Shown: positions 1,678 to 49,769 of the stretch, one piece after another
Position numbering within the stretch: position 1 is the first letter of the stretch
How the letters are laid out: each line of letters begins with the position of its first letter
Assembly (NCBI GenBank): GCA_050084515.1
Contig: CM114271.1
Span: forward strand, 27,466,001 to 27,530,000
Reading direction: 5' to 3'
Length of the DNA stretch: 64,000 nt
From: Blasia pusilla
Lineage: Eukaryota
Made by a program: the position numbers and the translations under genes
Notes under the pieces: generated by a model
Databases searched by the model: none
What the model was told of the DNA's origin: nothing
Seen by the model: the letters and a program-made list of their open reading frames with translations, nothing else

Positions 1678-1803
1678 TGTCGTGCGCATACACATCGCTA
1701 CACAACATACATCGCTGTCACCGAACACACACACAAACACGTATGATCCCATGCTAACTCATGGCATCCAAACAACGAGACAAGAAGTACCAAAATATCT
1801 CCA
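1678..1803 (-). repeat. Terminal repeat segment A2 of copy 1
   Basis: Near-identical direct repeat of 2321-2446 (tgtcgtgcgcatacacatcg...aaaatatctcca). Confidence 0.92.
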
Positions 1804-1805
1804 AT

Positions 1806-2318
1806 AAAGTAAGCTCCAATCTCTCTCTACACCATCTCACACCATAGCTCTCAAAGGTGTGCACTCTCTCTCATGTCAAACCAAACCCACTCTCCTAATG
1901 AGAGGCTTGGGTTACACTTACAAGGCAAGGTACCATAGCTCCGCCGCCTCATGCCAAGAGGTTCAACAAAGAGAGAATGAGATCTCAGGCTCTCTCTCCT
2001 TGAGGTATACGCCTCCCCTCTCCCAAGCTCTCTCCATGGTAACCTATTCTCCCAAGTCACCTCCTTGGCTCTTGACCTGATGAAGGAGGTCAAGGGCCAA
2101 TTAACAAAAATAGTAAGTCGATCATATACTAAAAATGGTACTTACCTAAAATAGTAAGTTCCTCAATATGGCTCCAAATGAGCCGAAACGAAGGGGAAAC
2201 CTGCTATCTCAGGTTTCCAAGGGCCTCAGTAGGTCAACCTCAACCTATTGGGCGTGTCCTCCACTACTCATGAAGGCGCTCTATTAGATCCCACCGATCT
2301 ATCCTAAAAGAGGTGACA
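1806..2318 (-). repeat. Terminal repeat segment B2 of copy 1
   Basis: Highly similar direct repeat of 12051-12563 (aaagtaag...cctaaaaga.gtgaca). Confidence 0.93.
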
Positions 2319-2320
2319 GC

Positions 2321-2446
2321 AGTCGTGCGCATACACATCGCTACACAACATACATCGTTGTCACCGAACACACACACAAACACGCATGATCCCATGCTAA
2401 CTCATGGCATCCAAACAACGAGACAAGAAGTACCAAAATATCTCCA
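2321..2446 (-). repeat. Terminal repeat segment A1 of copy 1, directly after the PPT
   Basis: Repeat of 1678-1803; on the minus strand it follows AGGGGGG-CAAT and starts with TG. Confidence 0.9.
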
Positions 2447-2450
2447 ATTG

Positions 2451-2458
2451 CCCCCCTA
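2451..2458 (-). promoter_or_regulatory. Polypurine-tract-like plus-strand primer site, copy 1
   Basis: Minus strand GCTAGGGGGG-CAAT-TG; same context in copy 2 (GCTAGGGGGG-CGGT-TG, ~27690-27704). Confidence 0.7.
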
Positions 2459-2628
2459 GCTGGTAGTTAGGTCCCTCTAACTCCAGATAGCCATCTATCC
2501 GTACCTACCATGACATACATCTCTCGGACGCTAAGAGCAAGAAGGCCGGGTGCTCATGTGGCCCCATCGTTAGTCGCCTCCTTGTCATCCATGTCACAGA
2601 GACAAGTCGGAATGTAGAACTACCTTCT

Positions 2629-3900
2629 CTATGTACATCTAGGACACATCCATCGTCCCTGAGGAACCCTAGTGAGAGGTGGCGTCAAACATGCCATATG
2701 CCATCCTCTCGAACACCCATCACAGACTAGCATCGTGGCCGCACCACGGGCAGAACCACACAACATACAACGCAAGCCTGTAGGAACTACTGCTAAGCTC
2801 GGATCTACTCTACGATCAATGTTAGGAAGGTGACATGGTGCACAATTACGCACATGGTCCTTCCATACCATACCATCGCGTCCCTCCAGCAAGAGAACAC
2901 TCGAAGGCAAAATGTCACGCACTCTCAGGATAGTGCGCCCTGCAGTCACATCCAACGTCGTCGGTGCCGTCTGCTGCAAGTAGACATAATCTCCTTGATG
3001 AAACCTCCGGATAGTTGGTCGATAACCACCACCTCGAATAGTCGCATACCTCAACGTATCCCGATGCTGTGCAATCGCCAAGTTCTCGAACGCCATGGGC
3101 ATCACTCTCCGAAATAACTCAGCCCTCTGAGAACATGCTCGCACCCATACATCTGGGTCATCAAGGTTGACATCTCACCAAGCATCTCGACGAATGGCGA
3201 GGTAAATCTGGCTCGGCCATAAAGTAGCAAATACGGTGAAAAAGACGCTAAGGATGCCTGCTGAATCTGTATCCCATCGCCAACCATGGCAACTGGAGGT
3301 CCCAATCTCCTAGGTGACCTCTCTGCAAGCCATACTTGCGTAAACCCCTCTTCACCGTCTGCACAACTCTCTCCGCTAATCCATCCGCCTCACGATGATC
3401 TCGCGAAGTCGCGGCGGTGGTCGATCGGCCTTTGATCACACAAGGTCCGGAACTCACCGCAAAACTCGGTACTGGTCTATCAACACCTCAGCCGGTGAGC
3501 CATAATGACTCAGCACTCTGTCAAGGAAGGCATAAGCTACTCCCTCACTTGCTTTGTCAGGCAATGCAACCAACTCGATCCACTTCGAGAAGTGCTCGAC
3601 CATCATCAACACATAACGACTGTGACGCTCCGTCAAGGGCAAAGGTCCTGCAAAATCCAAACTCCATCTATACCCTAAGCCCATGATCGGTAATGGATGC
3701 AACTGTGGAGTCGGAGCATTGAACGATGCTCGGACCCGATCACACACCATGCACTTGGCAACAAACTGCAGAACGTCAGTCTGCATGCCTCGCCACCAAT
3801 ACTGAATCTGGAGCAAGCTATACGTCCGCTTCACCCCAAAGTGACCCAACTCCTCATGGGCATGCTGCACTAGTCGTGCTCTCTGCAAAGGATGTGGCAC
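2629..3900 (-). pseudogene. Gypsy integrase with C-terminal PHD finger (frameshifted)
   Basis: HAHEELGHFG...CMVC zinc finger, WSLDFAGP, VLIDQ, DGLAERVVQTVK; PHD CMLC...LVCDGCSRGWHMACL...VPQGRWMCPRC at ~2630-2770. Confidence 0.9.
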
Positions 3901-4329
3901 TACGCGTACTCTGCCATCCTCCCAAACCCTCAAAACATGTGTCCCCTCCCAACGGAACCGTCTGGCCCGCTGTAGGATCCGATCCCGCTCTATAGCATCC
4001 ATGGTGCTTGCAAGGCTGGCAGTACGAAGGTACTCTAAGACTACTCCATCATCATGAATATCTCGGCCACTTGTCGTGTCCTCACTGGCCTTGGGATCCA
4101 AGGACTCTCTACTAGACCTCGCCATCGAAGTCTCCACACTCTGGCTCTTCATAGCCAACATGCCTAAATAGGCTGACGCGTGCCATCCTGGCACCGACTC
4201 CTCATCACTCTCTCCATGCCATCGAGATCCAGTCGCATCTCGCTGACTCGGGCATGGGTTACGACTCAACCCATCTGCATCCAGGTTGAGCGTCCCAGGT
4301 CTATGTACCACCTGAAAATCATACTCCTG

Positions 4330-5696
4330 CAACAACAAAGCCCATCTCGCAAGCTTCCCTGTAAGCAGCCGGACTCCATCAACCACTTCGGTGGTTGATG
4401 ATCGATGATGATGGTAAAGGGTTGCCGAATAAATAACGTCTAAAATGCGCGACGGCCCACACCATGACCAAGCACTCACCCTCATACGAGTTGTACTTCG
4501 CCTCTCTGGCGTTGTTCGAGCGGCTAGCATAAGCCACCACGAACTCTCTACCCTCATCATCATCTTTGGGTGAGCACCGCTCCAAGCCCCAACATGCTCC
4601 AATCTGTGTGCAACTGGAAAGGACGCCCCCTGATCGGTCTCCTCAAGATGGGTGCGGACGTCAACCTGTCCTTGAGCAATTGAAATGCTCGCTCCTACTC
4701 ATCCCCCCAGTGCAACTCGTGATCCACCTTGGTCAGCAAGGTCAGCGGCTTCGCAATCGAACTGAATCCCTTGACGTATCGCCGATAGAAGTTCGCCAAT
4801 CCCATGAATGCGCGAACACGACTCACATCTGTAGGGCGTGGAATGCGTGAGATAGCCTCTACCTTCGTCTGCTGAACACCAAGGCCCCCTCGATATATGG
4901 TATGACCCAAGTACTCAATCTGGTCGCAGAAGAACTTGCACTTGCCTGGATGTAGCTTCAGCCCATGTAATTGCAATCGTCAAAACACCTCCTCTAGATG
5001 TTGCTCATGCTCCTCAAACGTGGCGCTAAAGACTACGATGTCATCAATATAACACCTAGCAAAATCCAGACCAGCCAAGATCCTATCCATGACCCTCTGA
5101 AACTCAGCCGGGGCGTTCTTTAACCCAAATGGTAAGAACCGCCACTGGTACAAACAATCCTTCCCGTGAGGATCCATGCCCCAAAATGCCGTCTTCTGCC
5201 TATCCTCCAATCTGATAGGCAGCTGATGGTACCCCGCTCGCAAATCCAATGAATTGAAGACCTTTGCATGACCAATCGCATCAAAGATCTCCTCAGGGGT
5301 GGGCATGGCATACCTATCGGACTTCGTCTGCCGATTGATAGGTCGGTAATCCCCACACATCCGCCTATCCGTCCAATTGCCATGCACATCCTTCTTGGCG
5401 GGCATGACAGTGGCAGATGCATACTCCCCATGCGACATCTCCACTAGTCCTGCTCCGACCAAGTCCTGGCTCCTACTCTGAATCAGAGCCCTCTCCATAT
5501 CACTGTACCTATAGGGTCGTCGGAAGATCGGCATATCACTCGACAACTCAATGCGGATCCACGGTCCCTTCAGCGTACCCAAATCCTCCATGCTAAACGC
5601 AAAGCAGCTCCTATAACTCCTAAGGAACTGATGTATTCGGCGCCGCTCTCCTCCTGTCAACTTAGGGCCCATATCTGGCTCCCAAGTCTCCATCAT
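4330..5696 (-). pseudogene. Gypsy reverse transcriptase and RNase H (frameshifted)
   Basis: RMCGDYRPIN, SLDLRAGYHQ, LPFGLKNAP, YIDDI; RNase H VVAYASR...YNSYEGECL, KLARWALLLQEYDF. Confidence 0.95.
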
Positions 5697-6039
5697 GACT
5701 ACGGTAGGACTCTCCGGCGCGGGTATCGGTGGTTGCTATGATGCAACCCCGTCTCGAACAACAACACTTCGGCCGCTCTCCTGCAGCCAAGCGCAAACTC
5801 GATCTCCTCCACGTCCGATTGCCCAAAACCACGCTCGATGTTGTGGCTATCATCTCCTTGCGTACCTTCAAAACATCCCAAGAAGTCCAAGGGTGTCTCT
5901 CCCGATCTCCCCTGGTGCGTAGATCTCCTCGGGTCTCGCCCCCAGCCACTACCTCCACCGTCTCGGTAGGCATGGGGCTCACCAACGCAACTTGTGATTG
6001 TGATCATCGCGATCTCATACGACGCTGCTCGCCACTCCC

Positions 6040-6990
6040 AAGCCGAGGATCCATGTCAGCGATTTAGGTCCATCTCTGACCCAAGACATGGCGTCGTGAT
6101 GCCCTCGACATCTTGATGGTACTGCGGTCACTCCTGTGGGAAATCACATCGCTCGCTCTCTCTCGTCGGCGTTGGGCTCCACCAACCGCTGAACCTGGTC
6201 ATCCCAAACCAAGCCAGGACCGGCCTCCTTGTATGCATAGGAAGCGGGAAAACTCACAAACATGGGCAAGGCTGCCCGCGGCCTGCCTACCCTATTGACC
6301 ACAGTCAGCGGTGGTCGATCATCGTGCCTCATTGCCTGTGATCGACGACCTGGATCCAGAATGGAATCCTCTAACAAAGGGGAGGGGCGCTCCACTCTCG
6401 CATAGGCCCTCCATAACACCGCATGGGGCACCAAGTTGGTCCACCATAGACGCGGGCGATGGGCTCTAGAACCTACACTCGCCGCATCCAAGAACACTGC
6501 TGGGCCAATCCAGGCACGCACCTAATGAGCACTCGTCACGACCCGTGACCTGGAGTCTCCTAAGATCGGCACATTCTCCAGAATGTAGGATGGAGAACAG
6601 GCGGGCGCTCTGCAGCTCTTTGTAAGACCCTCACAATCTCCCAAAACAACTTTGGACCGAGTGTGACCAACCCGCTGCCTCGTCCGAAGACTCGATTGTA
6701 CGACATGGCCAATCGGGCAATGACCAAATCAATGGTCCCTACCGCTCTAAGCCTGCGCCCCAACAACAAAATATCCCTCGGTAGGGAACCTGTTACCAGA
6801 TCTGGACTTGCATGAACAATAAGTCGGGAAAACGAGGCGTAATTGCGCCACATGTCATAGTGAGACGCGCCCGCAACATCATCACTCTCCACATACAAGT
6901 CTTGTTGTACTCGCACTCCTGCAAAAAAAGACTAACCCAAAGTGCTAATCCCTCCAAAGAGATCTAACACTCGAATACCCTCCTCGGGGT
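6040..6990 (-). pseudogene. DNMT3-like C5 cytosine methyltransferase domain inside pol (frameshifted)
   Basis: PEEGIRVLDLFGGIST (motif I), IDLVIA../WPC (IV, frameshifted), LFWEIVRVL, YILENVP (VI), AHRPRLWWTN (VIII), DERERAM (IX). Confidence 0.85.
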
Positions 6991-7299
6991 ACACCACACA
7001 ATGGGTGTGGTATCCAAGGGTGTCATCGTAGCACTCCTGCTACCTTGGGTTCCTCGGACCCCTCACGCTGGTGCAAACGCCTCGCTCCACGCGGTCTTCA
7101 CGTGCTCATCTGCCAATCGTTGAAGCTCCTCAGCGGCACCTCTCCTCCACGGAATGATGCAGCTCCCATAACACTCCTCTCCATAGAAATGTCAGGAACG
7201 GGAGTATCCTCTGCATGGACATGTCCCTCAATCAAATCACTAGGCCAAGTGAGGGCACTTTGCTAAATCTTTGCTAGGTCGCCATCTCTCTGGCGTTTC

Positions 7300-7760
7300 A
7301 TCATCCGCACTTGTGAATCGAACGGGTAATGAGCTAAGGCGCCCATCACCGATCGCCATCCAGTGCAGAGGGGCCGACTCCTCCCAAGTAATCAAGGAAA
7401 ACCCCATCGGGTATAACACTGCTCCACCAACCAAGACGTCGTAGGACTCAGCATCAGTCACTATCGCCTTGGCGCGCACCACGGACTCATCTATAGGATG
7501 TCCCGGGTGAATCCTCACCATGACCTCCTGTCGGGTGATATACTGTGTGGTACTCGCTCCACCCAAGGATGTCTGTATCCGAAATGGACAACACTCCACA
7601 TCGGCTCTCGTCAAGCCCAATCCTCTGAATGAAGCTTTCCCCAACATCAAGGGTTTCCCCGACAAGATGCGCTGCGGACTAAAAGCTCTACCTCCAGGAC
7701 TCGCCAACTGGAAGACCTCTCCTCGGTTATCCAGCAACACAACACCAGGAGAAGCCATGG
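7300..7760 (-). pseudogene. Aspartic protease region of copy 1 (active-site motif partly deleted)
   Basis: VLLDNRG...RILSGKPLMLG...YDVLVGGAVL; homologous to the intact VLLDSGAQPLMLG of copy 2. Confidence 0.75.
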
Positions 7761-8399
7761 CACGCTCTATCGCGGGTCTAGCGGGCATCTCCGCCATCCT
7801 AGCAGCCGCAGCCTGCCATGAATCTGACGTGGACGGCCTGAGCATCCGCTCCAAGGGCAGGTCCATCACCTCCTCTGCAATCACCTCCGAACATGATGCA
7901 GGAACTCCAACTCCGCGCTCACATAGTGAAGCGGCCAGCCGAAAAGCCTCGGCAGGCGTACCCCCCAACGTCACAACATCGGAAGCAGAAAATAAAGGAG
8001 TGCAGTACACAATGGTGGCCGCCCCCAACAACGTGCTCGACACATGCCCCTCCTGAGCCTCAACAATAGGAGTCGTCGCACTTGCTTCTCCCATCGCCCT
8101 CCGTGCCTGCATACCAGCAACATTACCAACTCTCCAAGAACTTTGATGAGGACCCATCGGTGGGGTCCTCATCGCTTTGGACAACGTGAAAGATTGAGGA
8201 AGCCTAGTCAAATCTTGGCTTCCCCTCATTTGTGGATCAACTCTGCGGCCGCTCCTCCATGCGTCACAAGCTGCGGCGGCCTCCATGTGGGCAACCCCGC
8301 ACATCCATCCGGATCCTCCGGATCTCTGGCGCTCCATATGATGTCGATGCCCACGGATCCGGCATCGGGTAACCTCAATGCCATAGCGGCAATCTGCTC

Positions 8400-10250
8400 C
8401 TCGTAGGCCGCAGTATCGGCGACCATCCCAGCCTCACGTCTGGCATCTCCCTCGGTGCGTCTAGGTGGTGGTACTCTACCTCCTCCACGGGCAGCTCCAC
8501 CACCCTATCGGGCAACTCCAGCTCCTCGTCCCCTAACGGGACCACCTGGTGCACGATCTCTAGGCCCACCCGGACCGGCTACTCGATTTGGTGCCCTCTC
8601 GGCCTCGGTCGGACATAACTTTCAGATGTAAACTGAAACACCTGGCGCGTGTATGACCATACCTCTGACAATAGTCACAATGATAACCTCCTGGTGTAGC
8701 ACTATCTCCTCCTCCATGCTGAGGCACACGTCCATGACCCTGACGAGTGCAATCGCGCTGATGATGGGCTCCATCACATGACCAACAAGTAATAGTAGGC
8801 GGCTGCAGCTGAGCCGCATATGAAGGCGCAGGTCTCTGTGGCACGGCCTCCCGGTATCCTCCCTGAGCTCCTGGTGCCACAGTCGACCTATGTCATGACC
8901 ATACGGATTATGTCGTAGAGTATGGTGTGCTGGTAGAGGCCATTCCTTATGTAGGACCGTAGTGGCTTGGTAGAGATGCGGTTCCATCCATAGGGTTGGG
9001 GGTTACTCACTTGGGGGTGACTTTCCCAGTAGGGCCCGCTCTTAGGTTGGAGGATATAAGGTGGCTTGCCCTCAAAGAACAGTCAATTCTTTGAGTTGAG
9101 CCTGTTGCGTTGGGAGTTAGCCTTGGTAGTGAGTAGAGCTCTTGGCTATGGTGTTTCCCGCAAGCTTCGACCTAGATTCTCCCATCGTGGAGTGGGTTTG
9201 GCTCGATTGTATGTGATTTAAACGTGTTTTATGACGATGAGGTCTTTCACGGATTTCAGTTGTGGTACACTTGCGTTTGTGGATACTCTCGTCTATGTTA
9301 TGTATGTATGTGCGTATGGTATGTCAGCGATGTATGTTGTATGACGATGTGGATTCGCACGACACCTATCTCGGAGTCCACGTTGCTGCACAGGTGGTGC
9401 AGACAATCGTGACTGCTCTCGCCTAGAACCCATGGTGGCTACGCTCTCCTCCGCCATGTTGCGCTCAATGTTCTCGGCGGTCCTAAAAACATCTCTCAAC
9501 GTAGGGGAGGTGTTCATAAGAAGCACCCCCTCCCGCACCCGTGTCCGCAGGGTCCGGTCCAGCATCGCGTACCATGATTGGATAGCCTGAGCCTCTGTCA
9601 CCCCTTGAGTGACGTCGATCAACCGGCGCAAGCAAGTGTAAGCCTCACGCAAACTCTCATCCAGGCGCCTCTAGAAGTCGTGGATGCTCCGCAACTTCTC
9701 CGTCCGTACCCCCTGGTAGCTCGCCCTCAACTCAGCAAAGAACTCAACCACAGGGTTGAACCTGGGATGGCCCCGACTAGATGGGCAACTGCTCCCATGC
9801 GAGTGACTCCTCCTAAAACGTCACTAGTGGAAGAGGCAATAGCCTCTCCTGACTCCTCCTCCTTATCTGGGAACGGCTCCGTCCATGACACATAATGTGG
9901 GTCATAGTAGAGCCTCCACGCCTCGATCTCACATGCATATCTCTAAGAGAACTCATGGTAATCGTCCATGGGCGCCCCCTCTAAATGCTGGAACATACCG
10001 TTCCATGCTGTAAATGGGTTGAACTCTCTAGAGTTTCTGGCCCATTGGGAGTCGCACCAACTCCTAAACTCGCTATAAAATCGTGCAACTCAATCGTGCC
10101 CCTCTTTTGCACTGAAAACCTACGTGGTCCTCTATCCCGGTCGTCCATCTCGTACGCCCGACTGGTAGGACCATTCACAACGTGTGGCGATGTGCTCACA
10201 AACTCCTCTACACCCTCCCCTCGTCGGCGATGACACGAGGAAGGAGGTGA
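8400..10250 (-). pseudogene. gag of copy 1 with two zinc knuckles, interrupted by an insertion at 8891-9364
   Basis: CWSCDGAHHQRDC and CDYCQRYGHTRARC; ESLREAYTCLRRL capsid-like segment; collinear with copy 2 gag. Confidence 0.8.
8891..9364 (+). mobile_element. Solo terminal-repeat element of a related family inserted in gag
   Basis: TGTC...GACA termini, 4-bp TSD CCTA (8887-8890 and 9365-9368); right end resembles the reverse complement of segment A (cgatgtatgttgt...cgcacgaca). Confidence 0.85.
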
Positions 10251-12050
10251 GGTGGTCCCTCACGTGGAGACCCTCGGAACCTCGCGCCACTCGCGTAAAA
10301 CCTCTAGAGCTACTCTCGGGTTCACCACCTCGCCTCTCAAAGTCCCGAACGGACTCCGTGATGACCCTCGTGCCCCTCTCACCTGATCACTCTGAACCTC
10401 GTGAGGAATCCCTCAATCACTCATCCCAAACATGCGGCACTCGATCTACACTCTCTCTCCCCGAGACGTATAACGTGCGGCAACACGTGGCGTGGTGCGG
10501 CAAATCGACCAGGCTATCATCTCATCGACAACCTACCCTCAACTTCGGACATCCCACACAGGTCTATGTCCCCTAGACCACATACATAAATGATGCTCTC
10601 AGCATCCACACACCCAATATCCCCAAATAAATCCCAGAATCCCTCACACGTGTAGGGTAAAGGACCAGAATGGGTAACCTGAACACATGTCGATGTCGCT
10701 CCTCAGCAACTGCAAATCTCGACCCCAACTTGATCGTGGAGACAACTCCTCCAATCAGCAAGTCATACTCCTCCCGTAGTGATGCTGCTCAAAACTCCTC
10801 GATAGACAATGCGGTCCCAGCGGAACGGTGCGGCGTTGCAGGCGGCACGGAACGGCTACGAACGGCACGGCCCTCGATGGTGGGATGCGGCACTCGGCGG
10901 CATACCATCCTCAATCAATAATAATCCCTCACTCTGCTCCACAATGACGGTGCGGCTCCGCGATCGAGACGGTGCGGTGCGGCCACGAGCGGCACGGCGC
11001 GGCAATCGGCGACGCGTTGCGGCTACGGGCGTCACGGCACGATACTCGATCGTCGTCGAGCGGCTTCCAATCACAACATAGCAGCATGAAATCAAAACTC
11101 AAACACCATAACCGGAGGTCATCTGCCATCACTGGTTGATGAAGAAACTGCGATGACGGTGGCGGCCAAAACAAAGTACGTGCTGGCGACGCAAGTCAAG
11201 GAATCAACGAACGTCGTGGAAGACCACACCATGGAGAGCTTGGTATGAGATCTTGATGTGAGATTTCTTAGATTTATTGGGGATATTTTGGTACTTCTTT
11301 TCTCGTTGTTTGGATGCCATGAGTAAGCATATGCCTCCACTCCGTAATGGCGGCAATGGCACCCAAAGTGTGGACAATGGACGGTGGACCGTTGACAGTG
11401 ACGGCTGACCGCTGATGGTGATGGCCGACCGGTGACGGTTGACCATTGACGGTGACTATGATGGCGACGGCCGCCGCCGGTGTGGCGGCTGATTTAGGGT
11501 TTGCACAATTTAACCCTAAAAATCGCCTAGCAATGGCAGCTTTACAAGATTGACCCTAACTTTTTGCTCGCAACTCCAAATTGTGCACTATTTGTTGCAC
11601 ATCCTGCACAGCTTCACGATCTACGTGAGCATCAAAAAATATTTAGAATCGGACATTGCAGTAAAGATTGACGGGGACTGTCGTAAAGCCCAATGTCTCT
11701 TTCTCCTACACAAAATTCGGCAGCGCTCCCGCGCTGATTTCTCCCAACGAAAATGTAACATCTGTAAAAATACAAATCAGCAAGCTACATGGTGCTCTCG
11801 AGAGCACCAGCATGGGCAACCTGCCCCCATACTCAATCCCTATCAAAAATTGGGCAGCGCTTCCGCGCGCCACTCTTCCACACGAAAAATCGGTAAATGC
11901 AAAGAATAATGAAAGCAACCCTTGCTCCGGTGAGCACTCCCATGAGCCGCTGAACGGGGAACACGGTCCCCAACCTGCAAAAACAGCGAGTGACCAGAGA
12001 GCTCCCCCATGAAGCTCTCTCACTCTCTCATTCTCTCATTCTCTCTTTGT

Positions 12051-12563
12051 AAAGTAAGATCCAATCTCTCTCTACACCATCTCACACCATAGCTCTCAAA
12101 GGTGTGCACTCTCTCTCATGTCAAACCAAACCCACTCTCCTAATGAGAGGCTTGGGTTACACTCATAAGGCAAGGTACCATAGCTCCGCCGCCTCATGCC
12201 AAGAGGTTCAACAAAGAGAGAATGAGCTCTCAAGCTCTCTCTCCTTGAGGTATACCCCTCCCCTCTCCCAAGCTCTCTGCATGGTAACCTATTCTCCCGA
12301 GTCACCTCCTTGGCTCTTGATCTTATGTAGGAGGTCAAGGGCCACTTAACAAAAATAGTAAGTCGATCATATACTATAAATGGTACTTACCTAAAATAGT
12401 AAGTTCCTCAATATGGCTCCAAATGAGCCGAAACGAAGGGGAAACCTGCTATCTCAGGTTTCCAAGGGCCTCAGCAGGTCACCCTCGACCTACTGGGCGT
12501 GTCCTCCACTACTCATGAAGGCGCTCTATTAGATCCCACCGATCTATCCTAAAAGACGTGACA
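12051..12563 (-). repeat. 5' terminal repeat segment B1 of copy 1
   Basis: Repeat of 1806-2318; no adjacent A segment. Confidence 0.92.
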
Positions 12564-13680
12564 AATACTTGGATCCTACCACCGCATCATACAAGTTATC
12601 TACCATAGGCAACAGATACTTGTTCTTAATAGCCTTTTTCTTCAATGCCCTATAATCCACACACAATCGGAGAGAACCATAGTTTTTTGAGTTTAAAAGG
12701 GAAGGGCGTCGAAGCTCCAACCTAATTATGTGGATGAACATGTTTTCCTCCAATACCTCAATATGCCCATACAAGAGTTGAAGTTCGTGGGGAGTCATTC
12801 TCGAATCTCCATGGGTTCCTCCCCATTGGGGTAATTATGTATTTAAGTTCAATCTTATGATCCACATCTCTCTCAGAGTCTCAGGAGAAAACCATTTTGG
12901 AAGTTCCCCAGTCAAGACATTCCAATCCTTCCAAGATTTTCCTCATCTTAGGCATGAGATCCCCCGTAAGTTCCTCCTTTAGTGATATCTTGTTATGTTC
13001 AGACTCCATAGGTTTCAACTTGACTCCCTGACATTGGAACCCACCCTTAAGACCCTTCTCAAATGTTTTTAACAGACATCATAAGAGCATGATATTTTAC
13101 TTGATTAACGCTCAAAATTTGAGGACACACATTTGCAGTTTGAATCTCAAGAACCCTCATGGTATTTCCATCACAAAGAGAAAACTCTAATATGTCTTTG
13201 GCTGATCTAATAACTTAAATTAGCATTTGTATGCAAAAACCTAAGTGATGAAATCATATCCATTCTACATAGGCTACATACTTCAAGAAGACCTCAACTC
13301 CCCCAATGGCCCTAGGAATCTAATAAGTCCCAAAATATGCTTTCCCTTAGTCATATATTGATTGAGATGTTTAATGTCCATCTCAGTCCTATGCATGGGT
13401 AACTTCATCAACCACATACTCCATTCAAGCTTGTGGTTGATCCTTCAACGCCTCAAACATGGCATGTTGGATCTCATTGAGATTCGTCGGTGATTAGACC
13501 CCCATGACCTTCCTTTGAGAGTATCCCCTCATCCTCTTTTTCAATGATAATGACTCCTTGGGCACATGTGCTTGGGCTTCGAGTCCCTCAAGGTTGAGGT
13601 CTTCCAACAAGTTTCCAAGAGTCTTCAGCAAGGATTTTTTTTTCCAAACGGTGTTTTTTCCTTGTATCCCTCATTTTGAT

Positions 13681-14045: not shown

Positions 14046-14266
14046 TCTTAGGGTGTGGAGTGCTTTGAATTGAGGCAAAGAAGAGTAGAGGTCAAAATCT
14101 GCAACATAATCTAAGAGAAAACCACCATGTAGGCCATACTCAATGGATGGACCCACCAAAATCATCCATTGAGTATGGCCTACATGGTGGTTTTCTCTTA
14201 GATTATGTTGCAGATTTTGACCTCTACTCTTCTTTGCCTCAATTCAAAGCACTCCACACCCTAAGA
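14046..14266. repeat. Apparently perfect ~104-bp inverted repeat with 13-nt loop
   Basis: 14046-14149 is the reverse complement of 14163-14266; additional partial direct copy at ~14017-14051. Confidence 0.9.
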
Positions 14267-20530: not shown

Positions 20531-23500
20531 ATGACGAGGAAAAAAACTCAAGCAAGCAAGCCTGGGAGCTTCACTCCCAAGTCCAAGACTCCTGCGTCAC
20601 CATCTCCAAGGCCTCGTTCGGCCAATGAGATAAGGCAGCAAGAGATCGAAGAGCGCAAAAGGGAAGCGGAGATGCACAAACAAGAGCTTCTTGCAAAACG
20701 TGTTGAGGAGGCGATCGAAAAACAGAACGCAGAGGCTGAGGCGTCGTAGGCCTTGAAGAAAAGCATCGCCGGGGGGGAGTGTGAAAAGAACCGTCTGGAC
20801 GCGTCGGTGAGGAGAGCAGAATTGGCAAAAGCTTGAAGGGAAAAAGAGATTGCCATTGAAGAAAGCCGGGTCCGTCCAATCGAAAGTATTGAGATGCAGG
20901 AAATGTCTCTGATGAAGTCCGAGGACACAATCAATATAAAATCGGCTGAGGAAATGGGCGAAGTTCAAGTGACGGATGATGAGGTCATGAGGACCGCCAG
21001 CGTGGAGATGGTGGACATCTCTAAAGAAGCAGGAGAGCGGTCTTCCTCGTCTCTTAGCCCGGCGGAAGAAATCAACCTCTATCGGATCGACGAGTTTCCA
21101 GTGGACTTGCCATTTCTTTGTCCCAGCAGCGGTTGGCTAAGACATATCGACCCAATCTTCGAGCGGGTAATATACAAAGTTTGTTCTTTGAGTTATGTGA
21201 AGGCCCATGTTGCAATTCATTGGCAATTCAGTGTAGTTTATTGACCTTGTCCCCGTTGTGACAGGTGGTAAAGCAAATGGCACTGATGGAGGGCCAGAAC
21301 GCCCCGAGAATTCCACTTTTTTGATTGCGGACAATGGAGTAGGTCCGCAAAATTCAGTCTGACGAGGATATTGCGAAGCTGAAACAATCGGCAGCGACAA
21401 CATCCTACGTCAACAGCTTCCCTCCTCTATGTTCAGCCTTACGATGAACATGGAACCCAAGCGCTGGTGACGGAGGAGGACTTGGAAGCGCTCAACACAT
21501 TCTGTAGGATGAGAGATCAGGAATTCAGAAGGGCGATTGAGGGGACGGAATTCAGCTGGATGCGGAACCTGTATTTCTTCATCTGGGATGGAAACCACAG
21601 GTTCATGGCGTGGACCCAGTTTGCAGAGGAGTGCCAAAACTCATTGGAGGCGCATTTTTGCGTGAAGGCACTCGTGCTACATCCATACCCTCATCACATA
21701 GCGACGGTGGAGATGGCCATGCATGTCATGAACACGTAAGTTTCCTCTTCCTTTCTTTTGATTGCTGCAAACTGTCGGACTTCGACGAGTTGTTTAACTA
21801 GTGGTAACAATACATCGGATGCCTTAAAGCAACTTGTCGAAGTTCGACGAGTTGCTTGACTGGCTGCTGTTTTTAGGATATTTTTGGCCGAAAGCAACTT
21901 GTCGAAGTCCGACGAGTTGCTTGACTAGCCGCTGTTTTTAGGATGTTTTTGGCCGAAAGCAACTCGTCGGAGTCCAACGAGTTGCTTGACTAGCCACTAT
22001 TTTTAGGATGCTTTTGGCCGAAAGCAACTCGTCGGACTCCGACGAGTTGCTTGATTGGCCGCTATTTTTACGATGTTTTTGGCCGAAAGCAACTCGTCGG
22101 AATCCGACGAGTTGCTCGATTGGCCGCTGTTTTTAGGATGCTTTTGGCCGAAAGCAACTCGTCGGAGTCCGACGAGTTGCTCGACTGGCCGTTGTTTTTA
22201 GGATGCTTTTGGACGAAAGCAACTCGTCGGACGTCACTTGATTTTTGGCGTCAAATTGCAGCTTTACTTGAAATTGCGCAACCTGTCGGACTCTGACGAG
22301 TTGATATGTTCACTTTTCCAGCGGAGACCACTCTTTGAATACAAATTATCTGACAACCCGTCGGAGTCCGACTGGTTGTAACCAAACAATCACAAATCGG
22401 AATGCTATCCGTCGGACTCCGATGGGTTGCAATATTTAGCTCGTAGCTACCATTCCGACCATGAGGTGTGGCAACCTGTCGGAGTCTGACGGGTTGTAGG
22501 AACCCATGTAGCTTGCAAAAATTCTTATATTGTGTTTGGATGTGCAGGATTGTATCTGAGGGGAATGTCACCCACCACTGGATCCAGAATTGCGATCGGG
22601 TGAAGAAAGTGCTAACGACGCACCCGGCAGAGTACAAGGGGTTCTTGGGCGATGCTTGTAAATGAGATGCTGGCGAAGGGGGCTCAAATAAAAAAAAAGA
22701 CTTGGGAAAATATATTTATTTCCCAAGATGCAGCCGTGACAATCCTTGCTGGTTGAAGCTACAGGCCACCAAGAAGAGCGCTTCATTGGAGTTGGAGCGG
22801 AGGAAGAATATGTCTGTGTCTGAGCGTGCTAAGTTCATCCAAGTTGCAGTATCTGCAGCTACGAAGTACACTGCAAGGAAGATCCAGCGCTACATCGCCA
22901 TTCTCAACCCCAAACTTGGCCCCGATTTCTACAAGGAGCTGAAGGCGATAGTCAAGCGCCAGCGGAAGAGGGATGAAGATCTGCAGGGTCGGATTGGGGA
23001 GAAAGTATCTCTCAATCGCGTCCATCGATTTGCCTTGTCTGGAATTTCAGAATTTAGGAGAATCCGACTGATGAAAATCAGTCTCGAGGGCATAGAGGCC
23101 CAAAAGAGGGCGGCACACCATCCTCCGGGTGTCTCTGTTCCAGTGATCTCCCACTGGCTCCGTGAATGATCATTCTGGGACGCGTTGCGGCCTCTCGAGA
23201 AGTCCATGCTCGTGGGTCTCCAAGCCGAGCTGAAAAAAATAGAGCCTGTTCCGAAGGAAGCAAACCTAGAGAGTGGTAAAGATTTCGAACTTTGGCTGGA
23301 TGACATCTGGGACAAGCCCATAAAAAACCCACTCTTCAGGATGATGTTTAAGGATCACATCCTCCCTCAAGCAGACCTTGATGAAGAAATAGAAGCGAAG
23401 AAAAAAGATTTCACAAAGAAAAAATGAGATCTTCAAGGGCAGGCGGCCAATGCATCTCGACTAAGAGCTACCCAACGCATGGTATTCAGGTACCTCGTCC

Positions 23501-26573: not shown

Positions 26574-27232
26574 ATGTGGGCTTTGCTTTGTGAATCAGCA
26601 CCGCATCTTGGACTCTCCTCCGTAGTTCTTGGTCAAGTACCCCGTACCAATACTGGATTGATTGCGCCTCACTCACTCCATACGTAGCAATGATCAGCCT
26701 CCTCATGCGTGTGAATGCCTCTCTTAGACTCTCACCTGATCGTCGCTGAAAATCCTGTAGACTCTTCAGCTTGTCGGTGCGTACGCCATGGTAGCTCTTC
26801 CCCGACTGTCGGAAGAACTCCACTGTGGGGCTAAAGCTCGATGGCCCTCTACCACCAGAGATCTTTGCCACATCACGTGTCTAACTGCCCTCCTCTCCAT
26901 CTAGTCTCCTGGCTGATGGTGTGGGTCTCTCTCCTCTCACAATCCCATCATATGCCTCGTGACCACTAGTGGACATATACCCTGGAGCCCAATACATCCT
27001 CCAGGCATCGATCTCTACTAAATATAGTGATCAAAACTCCATGTAATCATCCATCAAAGGACCCTCCAAGTGCTGGAATAACCCCTTCCATGCCATGAAA
27101 GGGTTGAACCGTGTCGGGGTCCGTATCTCCTGGAAGTCGCACCACGTGTCAAACTCCTGGATAAAATCATCTAAGTCGATGGTGCCCACTGCACCCAAGA
27201 AACGACGCATTCCCCGATGGCCCATGTCGTCC
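26574..27232 (-). pseudogene. gag fragment of the copy-2 family fused to a truncated B repeat
   Basis: Diverged copy of ~34078-34730 (GTIDLDDFIQEFDTW...FNPFMAWKGLFQHLEG). Confidence 0.85.
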
Positions 27233-27769
27233 AACATGAGAAAGATGGCTTAGGAAAGCGATCTTCCTCTCTTATATAGGGTTGGGAAGAGCCAAAAGGC
27301 TCTTTCCCTAAAAGTAGCCCTCCCGTTGGTAACCTGCGCGCACAGGTTACTAGGGGCGGGTGACCTGGTCAACAAGTCATTCGGCTGTGAAAGACCTCAA
27401 CATGAAAGTTGTCAAAAACAACGTTCGTGACACAATGGACCTATCCTCAACCTCATCCAACACAGTGGGACAAAGTTACACTCCAGATAGTCCATTGGCT
27501 CCTACGCCCTATCCACGATAGATCTCCGCCTATCAACTACCCAGATGTGACAGTTGTCGTGCGCATACATATCGCTACACAACATACATCGCTGGTCACA
27601 TCTACACCACACAACATCAATCTTCCCCACACATGGGTCGATCCACACATGTACAAAAATCAACTTATACATATACATGGAGATCACACAACCGCCCCCC
27701 TAGCTGGCAATTGGATCCCCCCTAACTCCAGATAGAAAATATCACATATCTCTCACATTACCTACAACC

Positions 27770-33366: not shown

Positions 33367-34905
33367 CTAGGCTGCACTACACATAAACCCCATACTAGCG
33401 AGATCCTCACCCGGGTTAGGGTAAGAGATAGAATCTAGAGTCACACTAGCTGCTCGTAGCTCCGTGCCTTCCCTAAGCTGCATCATCGTCATGGCAGCAA
33501 TCCTCTGCTCTAATTGATCGATGCGTGAGAGAAGTGCCGGCTCTAGTGGTCTTGCTCCATCTCCTCTGGCTGGTGGTGGTCCTCTACCACCACGTCTAGG
33601 AAGGACTCCCCGACGTCCTCCAAGACGACCGCTCCCAGGCCCTCGGCCTACCTCTGGACGTACCTCTTGGTGAAGGTCAAAACATCTATCCCTAGTGTGA
33701 CCATATCTGTGGCAATAGTCACACTCGGGCTGTGGTGAGGCCATCCTCTGTGGCTCCCGAGAAATTGGAGGCGCTCGTGGTCCTCTCCCATGCTGTGGGC
33801 AGTCTCTTTGTCTATGGGCCCCTCCACACGTCCAACAGAACCACATCGGTCCCTGCTGGGCAACATATGTAGGTACGGGTCGTTGCCTCATAGGCTCACG
33901 GTACCCGCTCTGCCCTCTAGGCATCGGCCCGCTCCCATGGTACTGGTGCTCGCTCTGGCACGTGTGGGGTCACCGTCGCTTGTGGACCCGTTGACTCTCG
34001 AGAAAATCCAGCGGTCACTACCTGCTCCTCATTCATGTTGAGCTCAATACGCTCAGACAACTCAAAGACCACCTTCAATGTGGGCTTCGCTGTGTGAATC
34101 AGCATCGCATCTCGGACTCTCCTCCATAGTTCTCGGTCCAAGATTCCCACTACCAATCTTGGACTAATCGCGCCTCGATCACTCCATACGTAGCAATGAT
34201 CAAACTCCTCATGCGTGTGAATGCCTCTCTCGACTCTCACCGATCGTCGCTGAAAATCCAGAGACTCTTGACTTGTCGGTGACGCCCTGGTAGCTCTTCC
34301 CGATCGCCGAAGAACTCCCTTTGTGGGGTTGAAGCTAAGTGGCCCTCTACCACCAAAGATCTTTGCCATAATGCCTGTCTCACTGCCCTCTTCTCCATCT
34401 AGTCTCCGGGCTGATGGTGTGGGTTTCTCTCCTCTCACAATCCCATCATATGCCTCTCGACCACTAGTGGACAATACCCTGGAGCCCAATACATCCTCCA
34501 GGCATCAATCTCTATTGAATATAGTGATCAAAACTCCATGTAATCATCCATCAAAGGACCCTCCAAGTGCTGGAACAACCCCTTCCATGCCATGAAAGGG
34601 TTGAACCGTGTCGGGGTCTGTATCTCCCGGAAGTCGTACCACGTGTCGAACTCCTGGATAAAATCATCTAAGTCGATGGTGCCCACTAAACGCGAGAAAT
34701 GACGCATGCCCCGATGGCCCATGTTGTCCATCTGCTGCCAAGTGATACTGCCTTCCTCTGCGATCTCGTCACCAGACCCAGTGTCTAGTGATGATGATCC
34801 AGCCACGGATGGATGTCGAGGTAGCTCCTCACTGGTAACCCCTCGGTATCTCACTCCACTCCGTGTCACACCACTACTACTGCTCCCACTACCCCGTTCT
34901 TCCAA
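33367..34905 (-). pseudogene. gag of copy 2
   Basis: CWTCGGAHRQRDC and CDYCHRYGHTRDRC knuckles; frameshifted upstream capsid-like ORFs. Confidence 0.85.
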
Positions 34906-35708: not shown

Positions 35709-36391
35709 GGAGGAGGCCTCCCCAAGTGCGGGGCGGGGATGGGTAAGGGACGGCCGTGGCTCTGGCCGCCTCCCCACCTCGTCTGCCTCCGCCTTTGCAC
35801 CCGTTCGTCGCCGCGCCCGTCCTCTGCGACCTAAACCAAAATTTCCTGCACTCTAGCCTATACTCCTACCTTGGCCGTGTATGTACGTATGAGCTAGGCG
35901 GCTACGACCTAACCGCCTTACTTAACAGCCCCCCGGTGGTTGCAAGCCCTAACTCTCCTTCCTGGTTACTCCTGACATTCCGGCTATTACACGACGTTAC
36001 ATTTGCCGTCACAACTGCGCTACACCCTGTTGCTGTCCCCAATCAATCCGGAGGAGGCCTCCCCAAGTGCGGGGCGGGGATGGGTAAGGGACGGCCGTGG
36101 CTCTGGCCGCCTCCCTGCCTCATCTGCCTCCGCCTTTGCACCCGTTCGTCGCCGCGCCCGTCCTCTGCGACCTAAACCAAAATTTCCTGCACTCTAGCCT
36201 ATACTCCTACCTTGGCCGTGTATGTACGTATGAGCTAGGCGGCTACGACCTAACCGCCTTACTTAACAGCCCCCCGGTGGCTGCAAGCCCTAACTCTCCT
36301 TCCTGGTTACTCCTGACATTCCGGCTATTACACGATGTTACATTTGCCGTCACAACCTGCGCTACACCCTGCTGCTGTCCCCAATCAATCC
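35709..36391. repeat. Near-identical tandem duplication, 341-bp period, in the leader of copy 2
   Basis: 35709-36049 repeated at 36050-36391. Confidence 0.93.
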
Positions 36392-39300
36392 GTACCAGCA
36401 AAATCTGAGAAAAACGGACAGCGCTTCCGCCCACGGCCTTCCGAACACAAAAATGACCAACACTCGCAACACACGCGTCTCTAAGGGCTCCCGACCAAGG
36501 CAACTCGCTTGCCTACCTGCAAACAACGAATTCCCACCAGCCCCCTGACATCTTTCTCATGTAAAAATAAAGAGTAGTAAAAACAGCACACCCGGCCTAA
36601 AACTCCACTCCTCAGTCTACATCGGCATATCAAGCCTCGTCCACCCTGTGCTATCAAGGAATCCGGACGCTAGCACCCTTGTCCTATCTCACACACATAC
36701 AAGAGAGGTGCTCCAACGGCCCAACATGAGAAAGATGGCTTAGGAAAGCCATCTTCCTCTCTTATATAGGGTTGGGAAGAACCAAAAGGGTCTTCCCCTA
36801 AAAATAGCCCTCCCGTTGGTAACCTGCGCGCATAGGTTACCAAGGGTGGGTGACCTGGTCAACAAGTCACCCGGTTGTGAAAGACCTCAACAAGAAAGTT
36901 GTTAGAAACAATGTTCCTGACACAATGGACCTATCCTCAACCTCATCCGACACAGTGGAACAAAGTTACACTCAAGATAGTCCGCTGGCTTCTACGCCCT
37001 ATCCACGATAGATCTCAGCCTATCGGCTACCCAGATGTGACAGCTAGCATTTGTCTTAACTCCCGTGGTTTGGTTGTCTTCTCGCCCTGCACCTTTCTAT
37101 ACTCAGAAATATTAAATGGTGTGGTGGTGTACCTATGCTATGTACTAGGCACCGTTATGGAGGAGGATGTATAGAATGGAACCATAGGTTATGCATGCCC
37201 GTATCATGTCCATCCTCTCCACCTCTTTTCCATCCCCTCTCCACTTATTTTCCCCCTTCCTAATCCCTATTCCCTTGCATGTCCATGATCCCACTTTGTA
37301 CTCCTCTCTCCTTTATGTTTGTTAGGTGACTTCTTTCCTCTCCTATATGACCCTTCCTCATTGGTGATCCCTTTCTACATTCATTCTCTCTCCCCCTCTT
37401 CATGATCTTGTGGTCCTTTTCTCTCAATTCAATTTTCAATTTTTATTCATGGATTCCTCTCGCCTCCTTGACATAGACAATGGATGAGCATGAGAGGATG
37501 GAGCATGAGAGAGGGTCATCCCTTCATTCTCCTCCTTTCTTTTTTTTTCTATTGGATGATTCTCTTTTTTTTTTATAGTTGGAAAATAAAGATTATCATT
37601 ATATTGCTAGATGATGCAATCTATACATCTAGTATGGTTATTCTCGTGTGATGAAATGGGCCAAAGGAACCTTTTCAATCCTTTCGCATACGGCCCATCA
37701 CTTTACGGATAGGAAGGCCTCCCCCCACCTCCCTTAATGTTTTTTTGATGTATTTGATGATAAAAAAACTAATAAGAGAATAAAAACTACATCAAACATT
37801 TCATAGATATAATATAATTTTATAAGATTTATTTAAAACATTTTTCTTTTATTTCAAATATATTCATGGCACTCAAATATTTACTAAAAAATATCTTCAT
37901 AATTATCTTAGTCTTGACACTTTGAACCAATCAAATTGCTCACCTTTTGGACCAGTAAAATTCCTCAAAATTGATTTAATCATATTTAAGAATTATGAGA
38001 ATTAACTACAATAAATAATATAAACATAACTTATGCTTAATATAATAAGATCAACTTTAGTATTCCAAAATCTAGACGCATTCTCTAATAAAAATAAGAA
38101 TTTATATTATGATTGTGGGAGAGTGCTTTTTTTTATTTGGAGACACCTCTATTCCCAACATTAGACAACAAAAAAATATTTCAAAAAATTTAATTTTTTT
38201 ATAGTATATTAATATTTTCCCTTCATAAACTAATATTACTCTTCTAACACTTTTTTAATATAACTCTTCAAACACTTTTTTTTCGTGCATCTTACTATAA
38301 AATAAAAATACGTACCTCCTAAATAAACATCCCAACGATGTCGGTGACGTGAGAGAGAGGACTGGAGCATGAAACCAGTGGCACAGCATGGCGCTTTTAA
38401 CGGTGGTACTCTCGCTTCAGGCGAGCGAATGAAACCGATGACTTGCGCAAGGGGGAGACGAGGATTTGGGCTGTGAGACGGTCGAGTGGGACGAGAGCTT
38501 GCGGAGTCGACGGCCGTCGGTCAATGGAGGCCTGTGTGGCATATGCTCGAGCTCGGGGCGGGAAGAAAACTTTGAGAATCTTGGGTCGCCCACGTCAACG
38601 TGAGACTGCGAAGGCAGCTGAAGGAAATGTGTGCCGATCGTGATCTGGTTCGATTTGCTTTGACTCGTGGGGATTCTCGGGAGGTTTACCGCGTCAGCAG
38701 AGCGAACTCAGCGAACGATCGGCCATTTCGCCCTCGCAACTTCGGAAGGTTTACTCAAGGGAATCCGCGACTCGGGGGCAGGGAAGTTCTTGAACTCGAC
38801 TCTCGCCGGCGTTGAGGTCCGACCTCCTGTACGAGAGGGTGGCCGGGTTTGAGGGTTGATTCGATTTGCTTCGTGGGATCTCAGCGTGGGATTCGAAGGC
38901 ACCGATGTTGTCAGCTTTCGGCTGTGTGATCGCTTTGATTTGACTCACTGCGGTTCGGCGTAGAGAGGCAGACGACGTCAGCCTGCGAGAGAGCCCGCTC
39001 ATTGGACTCACGGGGAAGCGTTGCCGAGACGGATCCGAGGGCTGTGACAGGCATGTGAAACTGGTTTAGGCGGTGCTGAGTTGAATAATGTGCATAGTTG
39101 ACTCGTTCGAAAGGGAACGTGCTCTCTGAAGATGGAACTAGCCGATCGATGTCAGTGGATGGGGTGGAGTGGAGAGGCAGATCGTTAGTATGACTCTCCC
39201 TGGTAAGGGAACGGACGAAGCAGGCAGCGAGCAACTGGGGAATACGGTTCTGGCGACGTGCCAGAACTACAGGCATAAGCTAGTGCAGTGCAGTGCAGGT

Positions 39301-48001: not shown

Positions 48002-48508
48002 CATGGGATGGACAAGTCTGGACATGTCTATGAACATGGATTGCAAGAGATAAGGCCCACACTTTATAGTTTATGTCACATCTGTAAGGATAGGTTGACA
48101 AGATCTAGTAGATCGCCTTTGAGGATAGTGGAGGAAAACCTCATGAGGTCGAGGATGACCAGTTGAGGCTACAGATAACTTGAGAGAGCAAGTTTCCCTT
48201 TGGTTCCAACTCATTTACAGCCATATAGATAAACTTACTATTTTGGGTAAGCTATCATTTTGAATATAGTTGATTTTCCACTTTGGGAAGTGGCCCTTGG
48301 ACTCCAACATCAGGTCAAGATCCAAAGAGGTGACCGGCGAGCATATGTTATCATGTAGAGAGTTTGGTAGAAGGAATGGGATACACCCAAGGAGAGAGAG
48401 CTTTGGTGCTCATTCTCTCTTTGTTGAACCTCTAGTCATGAGGCGACGAGCTATGGTTCTCCTTGCCTTTTGTGTGTAATCCATGCATCGTTAGGAGAGT
48501 GGGTTTGG

Positions 48509-48624
<116 letters not shown>

Positions 48625-48629
48625 TGTAT

Positions 48630-49769
<1,140 letters not shown>

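Follow-up and report, generated by a model that had tools for sequence, protein, structure and literature searches.

A Ty3/gypsy-type retrotransposon family of Blasia pusilla with a probable Tf1-type self-priming signal and permuted element ends

A 64,000-nucleotide stretch of the Blasia pusilla genome (contig CM114271.1, positions 27,466,001 to 27,530,000 of the forward strand; hereafter the window) carries copies of a Ty3/gypsy-type retrotransposon family that most probably primes its reverse transcription in the manner of Tf1, by means of an inverted-repeat pair of primer and primer-binding site (PBS) and no tRNA. In copy 1, the 16 bp at 12035-12050 (ctcattctctctttgt) are the exact reverse complement of 12211-12226. 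Copy 2 has a different pair, in which the 14 bp at 36549-36562 (catctttctcatgt) match the reverse complement of 36724-36737 exactly, and a minus-strand TATATAA is located at 36762-36768, its first T being 31 nt upstream of 36737. Both pairs were read directly from the sequence and agree to the base with an initial annotation of the window, which had placed the TATATAA about 30 nt upstream of the arm in copy 2 and had proposed self-priming of the Tf1 kind.

Position of the arms and covariation between families

The boundaries of the repeats were fixed independently of the arms, by self-BLAST and pairwise alignment. Self-BLAST detected two pairs of direct repeats, 1805-2318 with 12050-12563 (96.5%) and 27231-27553 with 36721-37043 (92%). 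On the sense strand, copy 1 reads from the flank (...TATT) into the long repeat L (12563 to 12051, starting with TGTCAC) and from there into ACAAAGAGAGAATGAG.... The start of the downstream arm coincides to the base with the end of L, and this end is fixed independently by the 3' copy of the repeat, where L joins a short repeat, S. Since the same last bases of L join a different sequence (S) in the 3' copy, the end of L is more than the edge of an alignment. The upstream arm of copy 1 begins 176 nt ahead of it. TGG is absent from the first 23 nt past the repeat end in both window copies; the view that a TGG-type PBS is missing therefore holds, with the repeat end now set independently by the L|S junction and equal to the start of the arm. 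In copy 2 the downstream L is truncated (Table 1), and therefore the R-U5 part of this copy is present once.

The strength of the complementarity was evaluated by taking sequence with a start no more than 3 nt from the repeat end, comparing it with the repeat, and scoring the longest perfect complement, with 5000 dinucleotide-preserving shuffles of each repeat as the null. The longest complement was 16 nt in copy 1 and 14 nt in copy 2, the maxima among the shuffles were 12 and 11, respectively, and 0 of the 5000 reached the observed length for either copy.

Relatives were gathered by aligning the RNase H-integrase open reading frame (ORF) with its homologues and then scanning a metagenome contig collection. 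At least 557 of 600 stretches encode a relative, and 80 loci were kept, against all of which the repeat references were searched by BLAST, followed by inspection by eye. Two further families, the L006 group and L024, share the layout. The arm of the L006 group, AACATAGTTCTTTGAGT, lies 176 nt ahead of the L end and forms 17 perfect bp with the first bases past L; that of L024, GACATTCTTGTCAAGT, forms 16 perfect bp with the bases past L across a loop of 172 nt. The upstream arm is located 175-177 nt ahead of the L end, with a loop of 158-161 nt, in window copies 1 and 2 and the L006-family loci. There are thus four families with unrelated arm sequences (window copy 1, to which copy 3 also belongs; window copy 2; the L006 group; and L024), in which the perfect complementarity extends over 16, 14, 17, and 16 bp, respectively, and starts at the first base past the repeat or 1 base before it. 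TGG is absent within the first 17 nt or more past the repeat in all four. The first T of a TATA-like box is found at -28 in copy 1, -31 in copy 2, -26 in the L006 group (the 3' copy of L006, and L042), and -26 in L024. This spacing of 26-31 nt in all families examined places the upstream arm at the predicted transcript start, as had been supposed.

Pairing was counted in 12 5' copies as Watson-Crick pairs out of 16. Fixed offsets were used because in the MAFFT alignment the PBS arms were misaligned between families. Window copy 1 scored 16/16, as did L004 and L006, which are taken as one observation, and window copy 2, L021, and L027 each scored 15/16. When the primer of one family was set against the PBS of another, only 3-8 of the 16 positions paired (three families tabulated). 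Within the L006 family, a double compensatory change separates L021 from L006: the primer has CA>TG, and the PBS has the matching TG>CA. The proposal that the sequences differ while the pairing is kept, made originally from the two window copies, is thereby extended to four unrelated arm pairs of the same geometry. L034, whose 5' L lies approximately 600 nt upstream of the protein match and which is apparently internally deleted, was included in these counts. An inverted-repeat scan of the 80 loci and the window (at least 12 nt, loop 120-200) gave 36 hits; those in L036 (20 nt) and L063 (19 nt), considered as primer/PBS pairs, proved on inspection to be an unrelated repeat or palindromic sequence.

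Proposed priming route and competing explanations

The arrangement described above leads us to infer where exactly transcription starts, that RNase H nicks the RNA, and that priming takes place as follows. Transcription would start approximately 26-31 nt downstream of the TATA-like box in the 5' L, at the first base of the upstream arm, and the first 14-17 nt of the RNA would fold back across approximately 160 nt onto the complement that starts right past the repeat. By analogy with Tf1, the RNase H of the element would nick the RNA after the duplex, and the freed 3' end would prime minus-strand strong-stop DNA, so that a tRNA would be unneeded. The PBS of the new copy would be copied from the primer itself, which would re-match the arms in each round; hence families could come to carry different yet mutually complementary sequences. 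Re-matching in every cycle, with decay only after insertion, fits the mixture of perfect and eroded pairs. Predicted folds of the RNA from the putative start to the PBS join the two arms, in the minimum-energy as well as in the centroid structure (z -4.67 and -2.91), and a consensus fold of eight copies retains the arm helix. No Rfam family was hit at the gathering thresholds.

Two independent copies, window copy 3 (49768-49998) and L038 (3361-3800), run from sense U5-PBS straight into antisense U3, and the fold-back occurs exactly at the inverted repeat. In copy 3, the primer sequence is found at 48409-48424, and a PBS-like sequence at 49815-49830 is preceded by the U5 end and followed by antisense U3. 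Such copies could be the products expected if a primer still bearing the upstream U3 was copied; a fold-back at the DNA level would look alike. Further breakpoints are located near the arms. The downstream L of copy 2 breaks off 3 nt past the primer sequence (27231-27233), L065 is truncated after the ninth nucleotide of the primer (approximately 7107), and a deletion in L018 (approximately 3321) and L062 (approximately 1541) joins the end of the PHD coding sequence to approximately nucleotide 14 of R.

Transcription of the family was examined with the raw reads of three stranded RNA-seq runs carrying the same species label (X9, X10, and X11), aligned on 11600-12700 at 90% likeness, which gave 488-690 reads per run. 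In the three runs, more than 90% of the depth came from reads with the first mate on the plus strand, which in most stranded libraries denotes minus-strand RNA, here the sense strand of the element. In X9, the flank beyond 12563 had a depth of approximately 0, and U3 had a depth of 42-120. Between the adjacent bins 12229-12265 and 12192-12228, the depth rose in all three runs, from 121 to 171 in X9, from 213 to 253 in X10, and from 112 to 146 in X11. From R-U5, the depth in X9 ran on through the PBS into the leader (171, 65, and then 27, the last at 12007-12043). These data show that sense transcripts span R-U5, the PBS, and the leader. Insertions in the reads behind 12250, together with loose read ends at 12254, revealed an extra TA at 12250 in expressed relatives, which changes the TATA-like sequence of copy 1 into TATATAC, a better TATA box. 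Loose ends at 12563/12564 indicated that U3 reads run upstream into S', an internal copy of S, and 19 reads in X9 went from the L end into S (loose ends at 12050). The RNA data are compatible with the predicted start at 12226, without proving it. In each of the three runs, 2-5 reads joined 12186 back to 12015 with 7 extra letters in between, which points to a duplication of the R-U5-PBS segment in some of the expressed copies. The 8-nt unit AGAATGAG after the PBS, duplicated in copy 1, was absent from 10 of 30 reads in X9.

Several observations weigh against self-priming as proposed here. Pairing is lower in older, decayed copies of the L006 group, namely L042 (13/16), L019, L034, and L056 (12/16 each), L007 (11/16), and L023 (9/16), and the site has been lost in L010 and L052, which lack it at the expected place. 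The two perfect scores of L004 and L006 count as one observation because the same stop codons are common to both. The distant L075/L066 family shares the end architecture but has at most 10/16 pairs; the pairing signal is not universal in the clade. ARAGORN found no tRNA gene in the window and 38 loci, and complementarity of the PBS to a host tRNA or tRNA fragment may yet exist. No pile of read starts was listed at 12226, the sole listed site being 11741 in X9. The rise in depth overlaps 12229-12300, where the expressed copies differ from copy 1, and part of it may therefore be a loss of reads at the 90% threshold. Moreover, 341-526 of the 488-690 reads per run are only 90-95% like the window, and therefore these data speak for the family and not for this copy.

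The inverted repeat might alternatively be a conserved structure of the leader RNA serving packaging, dimerisation, or translation control, with another primer, for example a tRNA fragment or small RNA, pairing nearby. In favour of this reading, the R-U5 region has structure and is conserved in part from family to family, the L075/L066 family has no long-range repeat, and, with no tRNA gene in the window and the 38 loci, a non-canonical primer is conceivable. A structural helix, however, need not start at the exact end of the repeat, as the arms do in four families. The L|S junction shows minus-strand DNA starting exactly at the L end, and the first 17 nt or more past the repeat contain no TGG. 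We consider this explanation improbable. At the DNA level, the repeats might have a role unrelated to priming, for example as a hairpin, a site of recombination, or a palindrome bound by a protein. The sequence of a site that binds a protein should, however, be conserved, and in these families it is only the complementarity that persists while the sequence changes. The breakpoints at or in the arms (the downstream L of copy 2, L065, L018/L062, and the fold-backs of copy 3 and L038) would suit such a role, but errors of reverse transcription at the end of the primer or template predict them equally, and we regard a DNA-level role as very unlikely. A chance match in low-complexity CT/GA-rich sequence, which the CT/GA-rich arms of copy 1 and the GA microsatellites close by might call to mind, has a negligible probability and is already refuted, because none of the shuffles reached the observed length in either copy and arms that are not repetitive occur with this geometry in the L006 and L024 families. 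Self-priming of the Tf1 kind, as proposed in the initial annotation, is thus well supported by the position of the arms, the TATA spacing, and the covariation, with a transcription start that is predicted.

Permuted ends of the element

The family combines a DDE integrase with permuted ends, and this combination is a real and recurrent sequence architecture. In sense order, copy 1 consists of L, the PBS, the internal region, a polypurine tract (PPT; AGGGGGGCAA), S' (127 nt), a 2-nt spacer (NN), L, and S (127 nt). Its termini are TGTC... on the left and ...GACA on the right, with 4-bp target-site duplications (TSDs): the flanking TATT at 12564-12567 equals the TATT at 1674-1677. Comparison with an empty-site paralogue at 61545-61780 demonstrated that 1678-12563 was inserted as a single unit with a 4-bp duplication of TATT. 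Copy 2 also starts at TGTCAC, without S before it. Copy 3, for which empty-site paralogues exist (family D14), is flanked by the duplication TTTA/TTCA. The initial annotation was silent on these permuted ends and on the self-priming already predicted in other plant lineages.

Right ends of the form S'-NN-L-S followed by the flank were found in L001/L029, L002, L006, L014, L016, L020, L042/L056, L052, and the distant L075. The TSDs of such full forms include AAGG/AAGG (L006), CATA/CATA (L042), AACA/AATA (L052), and ATTA/ACTA (L075). In addition, 13 independent loci (L003, L008/L039, L010, L017, L019, L021, L023, L025, L034, L035, L040/L041, L044, and L078) contain 'unit' copies, in which L, the internal region, and S stand against the flank without the terminal L-S; the TSDs here include TACA/TACA (L010), TACA/TACA (L021), and GGTA/AGTA (L019). 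Among 10 insertions with both ends, the TSD was perfect in five, had one mismatch in four, and was unclear in one; L023 gave no unambiguous reading, and L034 was left out. The TG..CA termini and 4-bp TSDs of conventional long terminal repeats (LTRs) are present, yet the right terminus is S and not the long repeat.

S always follows directly behind a conserved PPT block; in the L006-family loci, the conserved block is TTAGAGGGACCTAAC..AGCTAGGGGGGC, and S begins right behind it. The PBS always follows directly on L. Taken together, the PPT and the PBS delimit a conventional LTR, S-NN-L, and the L|S joint is exactly the end of its U5 joined to the start of its U3. This joint varies by 0-20 nt among copies, with 20 extra nucleotides ending in the last bases of the PPT in L016, which suggests that the joint is made anew and not copied. 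The internal S'-NN-L site reads ...GACA-NN-TGTC... and is a palindrome if NN is GC.

We tentatively consider that the integrated form is a circular permutation of the product of reverse transcription, a possibility that we would put at somewhat below even. In the simplest reading, which we prefer, the integrase would then cut an internal end-to-end junction in circular (2-LTR-circle-like) or concatemeric cDNA, not the ends of linear cDNA. Cutting of one junction of a two-LTR circle would give the full form; cutting of both, or later recombination of S with S, would give the unit forms. For retroviruses, integration through an internal circle junction is an old proposal that was later given up. 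We found no description of a Gypsy element with a DDE integrase and split direct repeats in the literature, although Repbase Reports and most subscription journals were not covered, and this is weak evidence of novelty. In the accessible parts of PMC4600332, PMC6317226, and PMC2864245, ends of the form L-int-S-NN-L-S (int, internal region) are not described for Tf1-type elements.

Table 1. Coordinates of the features of the three window copies
Feature	Position	Strand	Basis or remark
Copy 1, 5' repeat L (TGTCAC start)	12051-12563	-	96.5% identity to 1805-2318
Copy 1, U3	12227-12563	-	Subdivision of 5' L
Copy 1, R-U5	12051-12226	-	Subdivision of 5' L
Copy 1, TATA-like box	12250-12254	-	GTATAC; first T 28 nt upstream of primer start
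Copy 1, putative self-primer (upstream arm; predicted first 16 nt of the transcript, the start of R, inside 5' L)	12211-12226	-	Complement of 12035-12050
Copy 1, putative PBS (first bases past 5' L; pairs with the putative self-primer)	12035-12050	-	L end at 12051/12050 set by 3' copy
Copy 1, PPT AGGGGGGCAA, directly upstream of S'	2448-2457	-	Junction reading
Copy 1, S' (internal copy of short repeat S, 127 nt)	2321-2447	-	98.4% identical to 1679-1805; 2-nt spacer 2319-2320 next
Copy 1, 3' repeat L (second copy of primer sequence at 1966-1981)	1805-2318	-	Self-BLAST, junction reading
Copy 1, terminal S (127 nt, ends ...CGACA), true right end of the insertion	1678-1804	-	Empty-site paralogue
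Copy 2, 5' repeat L (TGTCAC start at 37042)	36563-37042	-	Only 36721-37042 repeated, at 27231-27552
Copy 2, putative self-primer (14 nt)	36724-36737	-	Pairing; TATATAA 31 nt upstream
Copy 2, putative PBS	36549-36562	-	Perfect complement of the putative self-primer of copy 2
Copy 2, downstream L	27231-27552	-	Truncated 3 nt past primer sequence, fused to 670-nt gag-like duplicate
Copy 3, internally rearranged relative of copy 1	48074-50119	+	L start (TGTCAC) left, S end (...GACA) right

Protein content, known relatives, and other features of the window

Among 20 window ORFs scanned, minus-strand ORFs between the repeats of both window copies 1 and 2 encode RVT_1, Integrase_H2C2, rve, and a C-terminal PHD finger (PF00628); the two copies are therefore minus-strand Ty3/gypsy-type elements. 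The domain order, reverse transcriptase (RT), RNase H, and a DDE integrase with an H2C2 zinc domain, is that of Ty3/gypsy. Both copies are degenerate relics riddled with stops, and we make no claim of activity for them. Among the matches listed, the nearest named match is a protein of the liverwort Calypogeia fissa (70% identity), and further relatives occur in Klebsormidium, Sphagnum, and Marchantia. Most of the 83 homologues listed have a PHD finger and seven also have a C5 DNA-methyltransferase domain; the chromodomain (PF00385) is present in only two, both of 27-29% identity, and the tyrosine recombinase domain (PF00589) in none. The 20 window ORFs, which include part of the ORFs in the 5' half of the elements, yielded no methyltransferase domain. 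A C5 cytosine methyltransferase stands between RNase H and the integrase in the relatives P0009, P0020, P0021, P0030, P0036, and P0055, and a Dam-type adenine methyltransferase family is listed for P0060. The best match of the full-length relative P0005 among solved structures is the Ty3 Gag-Pol polyprotein (7q5b, E 4e-101; the Ty3 RT, 4ol8, gave 3e-76). A look-up in a protein atlas returned only generic RNase H/integrase clusters with non-specific neighbours and did not help the placement. The family is of the Ty3/gypsy type and, in addition to RT, RNase H, and a DDE integrase, encodes a PHD finger at the C-terminus; it is part of a clade that occurs in bryophytes and charophytes.

The self-priming proposed here is a known kind of mechanism in a new lineage. 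Ty3 of Saccharomyces cerevisiae, the closest solved structure, has the same order of RT, RNase H, and integrase, and uses a tRNA primer and conventional LTRs. Complementarity between PBS and LTR, apparently in place of a tRNA PBS, is shared with Tf1 and Tf2 of Schizosaccharomyces pombe, with Tj1, and with the Tf1/sushi group, for many elements of which self-priming has been proposed. The duplex of Tf1 is 11 nt, whereas the duplexes here are 14-17 bp. Unlike Tf1/sushi elements, the present family has a PHD finger at the integrase C-terminus instead of the chromodomain expected in the Tf1/sushi-Tcn1 chromovirus clade, and its nearest named relatives are streptophyte. In Tj1 of S. japonicus, the PBS lies right past the 5' LTR and is complementary to the LTR sequence at the predicted 5' end of the mRNA; a cleavage site is proposed as well, and Tf1 is cited in the same account as the demonstrated case (PMC4600332, in part).

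Among plants, self-priming has been predicted for 12% of elements, which comprise the Tcn1 clade of mosses and club-mosses and the Ty1/copia lineage TAR (Neumann et al. 2019; PMC6317226, in part). These are plant LTR retrotransposons without a tRNA PBS, which the present elements also appear to lack, and their self-priming is likewise predicted from sequence; Tcn1, like the present clade, occurs in non-seed plants. The present clade has a PHD finger, whereas 95% of Tcn1 elements have an aromatic-cage chromodomain, as stated in the accessible part of the same survey. That survey, as described there, admitted only LTR pairs directly flanked by TSDs and ending in TG..CA; owing to the extra terminal S, the present elements would fail this filter. 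More generally, annotation pipelines that require a tRNA PBS and TSDs flanking an LTR pair would reject or mis-delimit such elements, which are evidently abundant, as the at least 557 related stretches indicate. The presence of four primer/PBS pairs that covary, in a Gypsy clade with a PHD finger from bryophyte-like genomes, widens the range of self-priming and provides a clean natural covariation series for the mechanism.

The homologues of the RNase H-integrase ORF of the window include 'retrotransposon proteins' of Klebsormidium, the genus of KnitGypsy-Dnmt3 (Klebsormidium nitens), to which other Gypsy elements with PHD/DNMT domains are related. Many of the listed relatives combine RT, RNase H, integrase, and a PHD finger; a methyltransferase domain, as in KnitGypsy-Dnmt3, was not found in the scanned window ORFs. 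KnitGypsy was called an LTR Gypsy element, and the accessible part of that report contains nothing on a PBS or split repeats (de Mendoza et al. 2018, PMC5890265).

The layout of the repeats has its counterpart in the DIRS order. Elements of this order are not known to make a target-site duplication, and TOC1 of Chlamydomonas has the same split-repeat layout. Window copy 1 and the loci with a full right end named above show the arrangement A1-int-B1-A2-B2, with one long repeat on the left and short-long-short on the right. PAT, Ngaro, and VIPER, as far as they are described in the accessible parts of PMC4157794 and PMC5890265, have this identical arrangement of split direct repeats and a tyrosine recombinase. 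The present family differs from them by its DDE integrase with an H2C2 zinc domain (rve and Integrase_H2C2), its 4-bp duplications, and its TGTC..GACA termini. If confirmed, permuted ends together with a DDE integrase would be more surprising than the self-priming and would offer a natural system for integration from an internal end-to-end junction.

Several other features of the window were observed. The insertion site of copy 1 lies within the RT domain of another kind of Gypsy element, which is richer in AT (1560-1677 and 12564-12720; motif ...DYRALKKKAIKNKYLLP...GSKYLTKINLRQGYYQI). In copy 2, the gag-like duplicate at 26561-27233 matches 34065-34730, and the leader contains a tandem duplication of approximately 341 bp, 98% identical, at 35709-36392. 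In copy 3, two long (GA)n arrays (48510-48622 and 49640-49768) flank approximately 1 kb of unrelated sequence and occupy the positions of the GA-rich U5 and post-PBS sequence of copy 1. At 14046-14266, an inverted repeat of 104 nt without mismatch, with 13 nt in the loop, may represent an element that forms a hairpin or an artefact of the assembly. Finally, six copies of a 65-bp tandem repeat with internal inverted repeats are located at 21761-22280.

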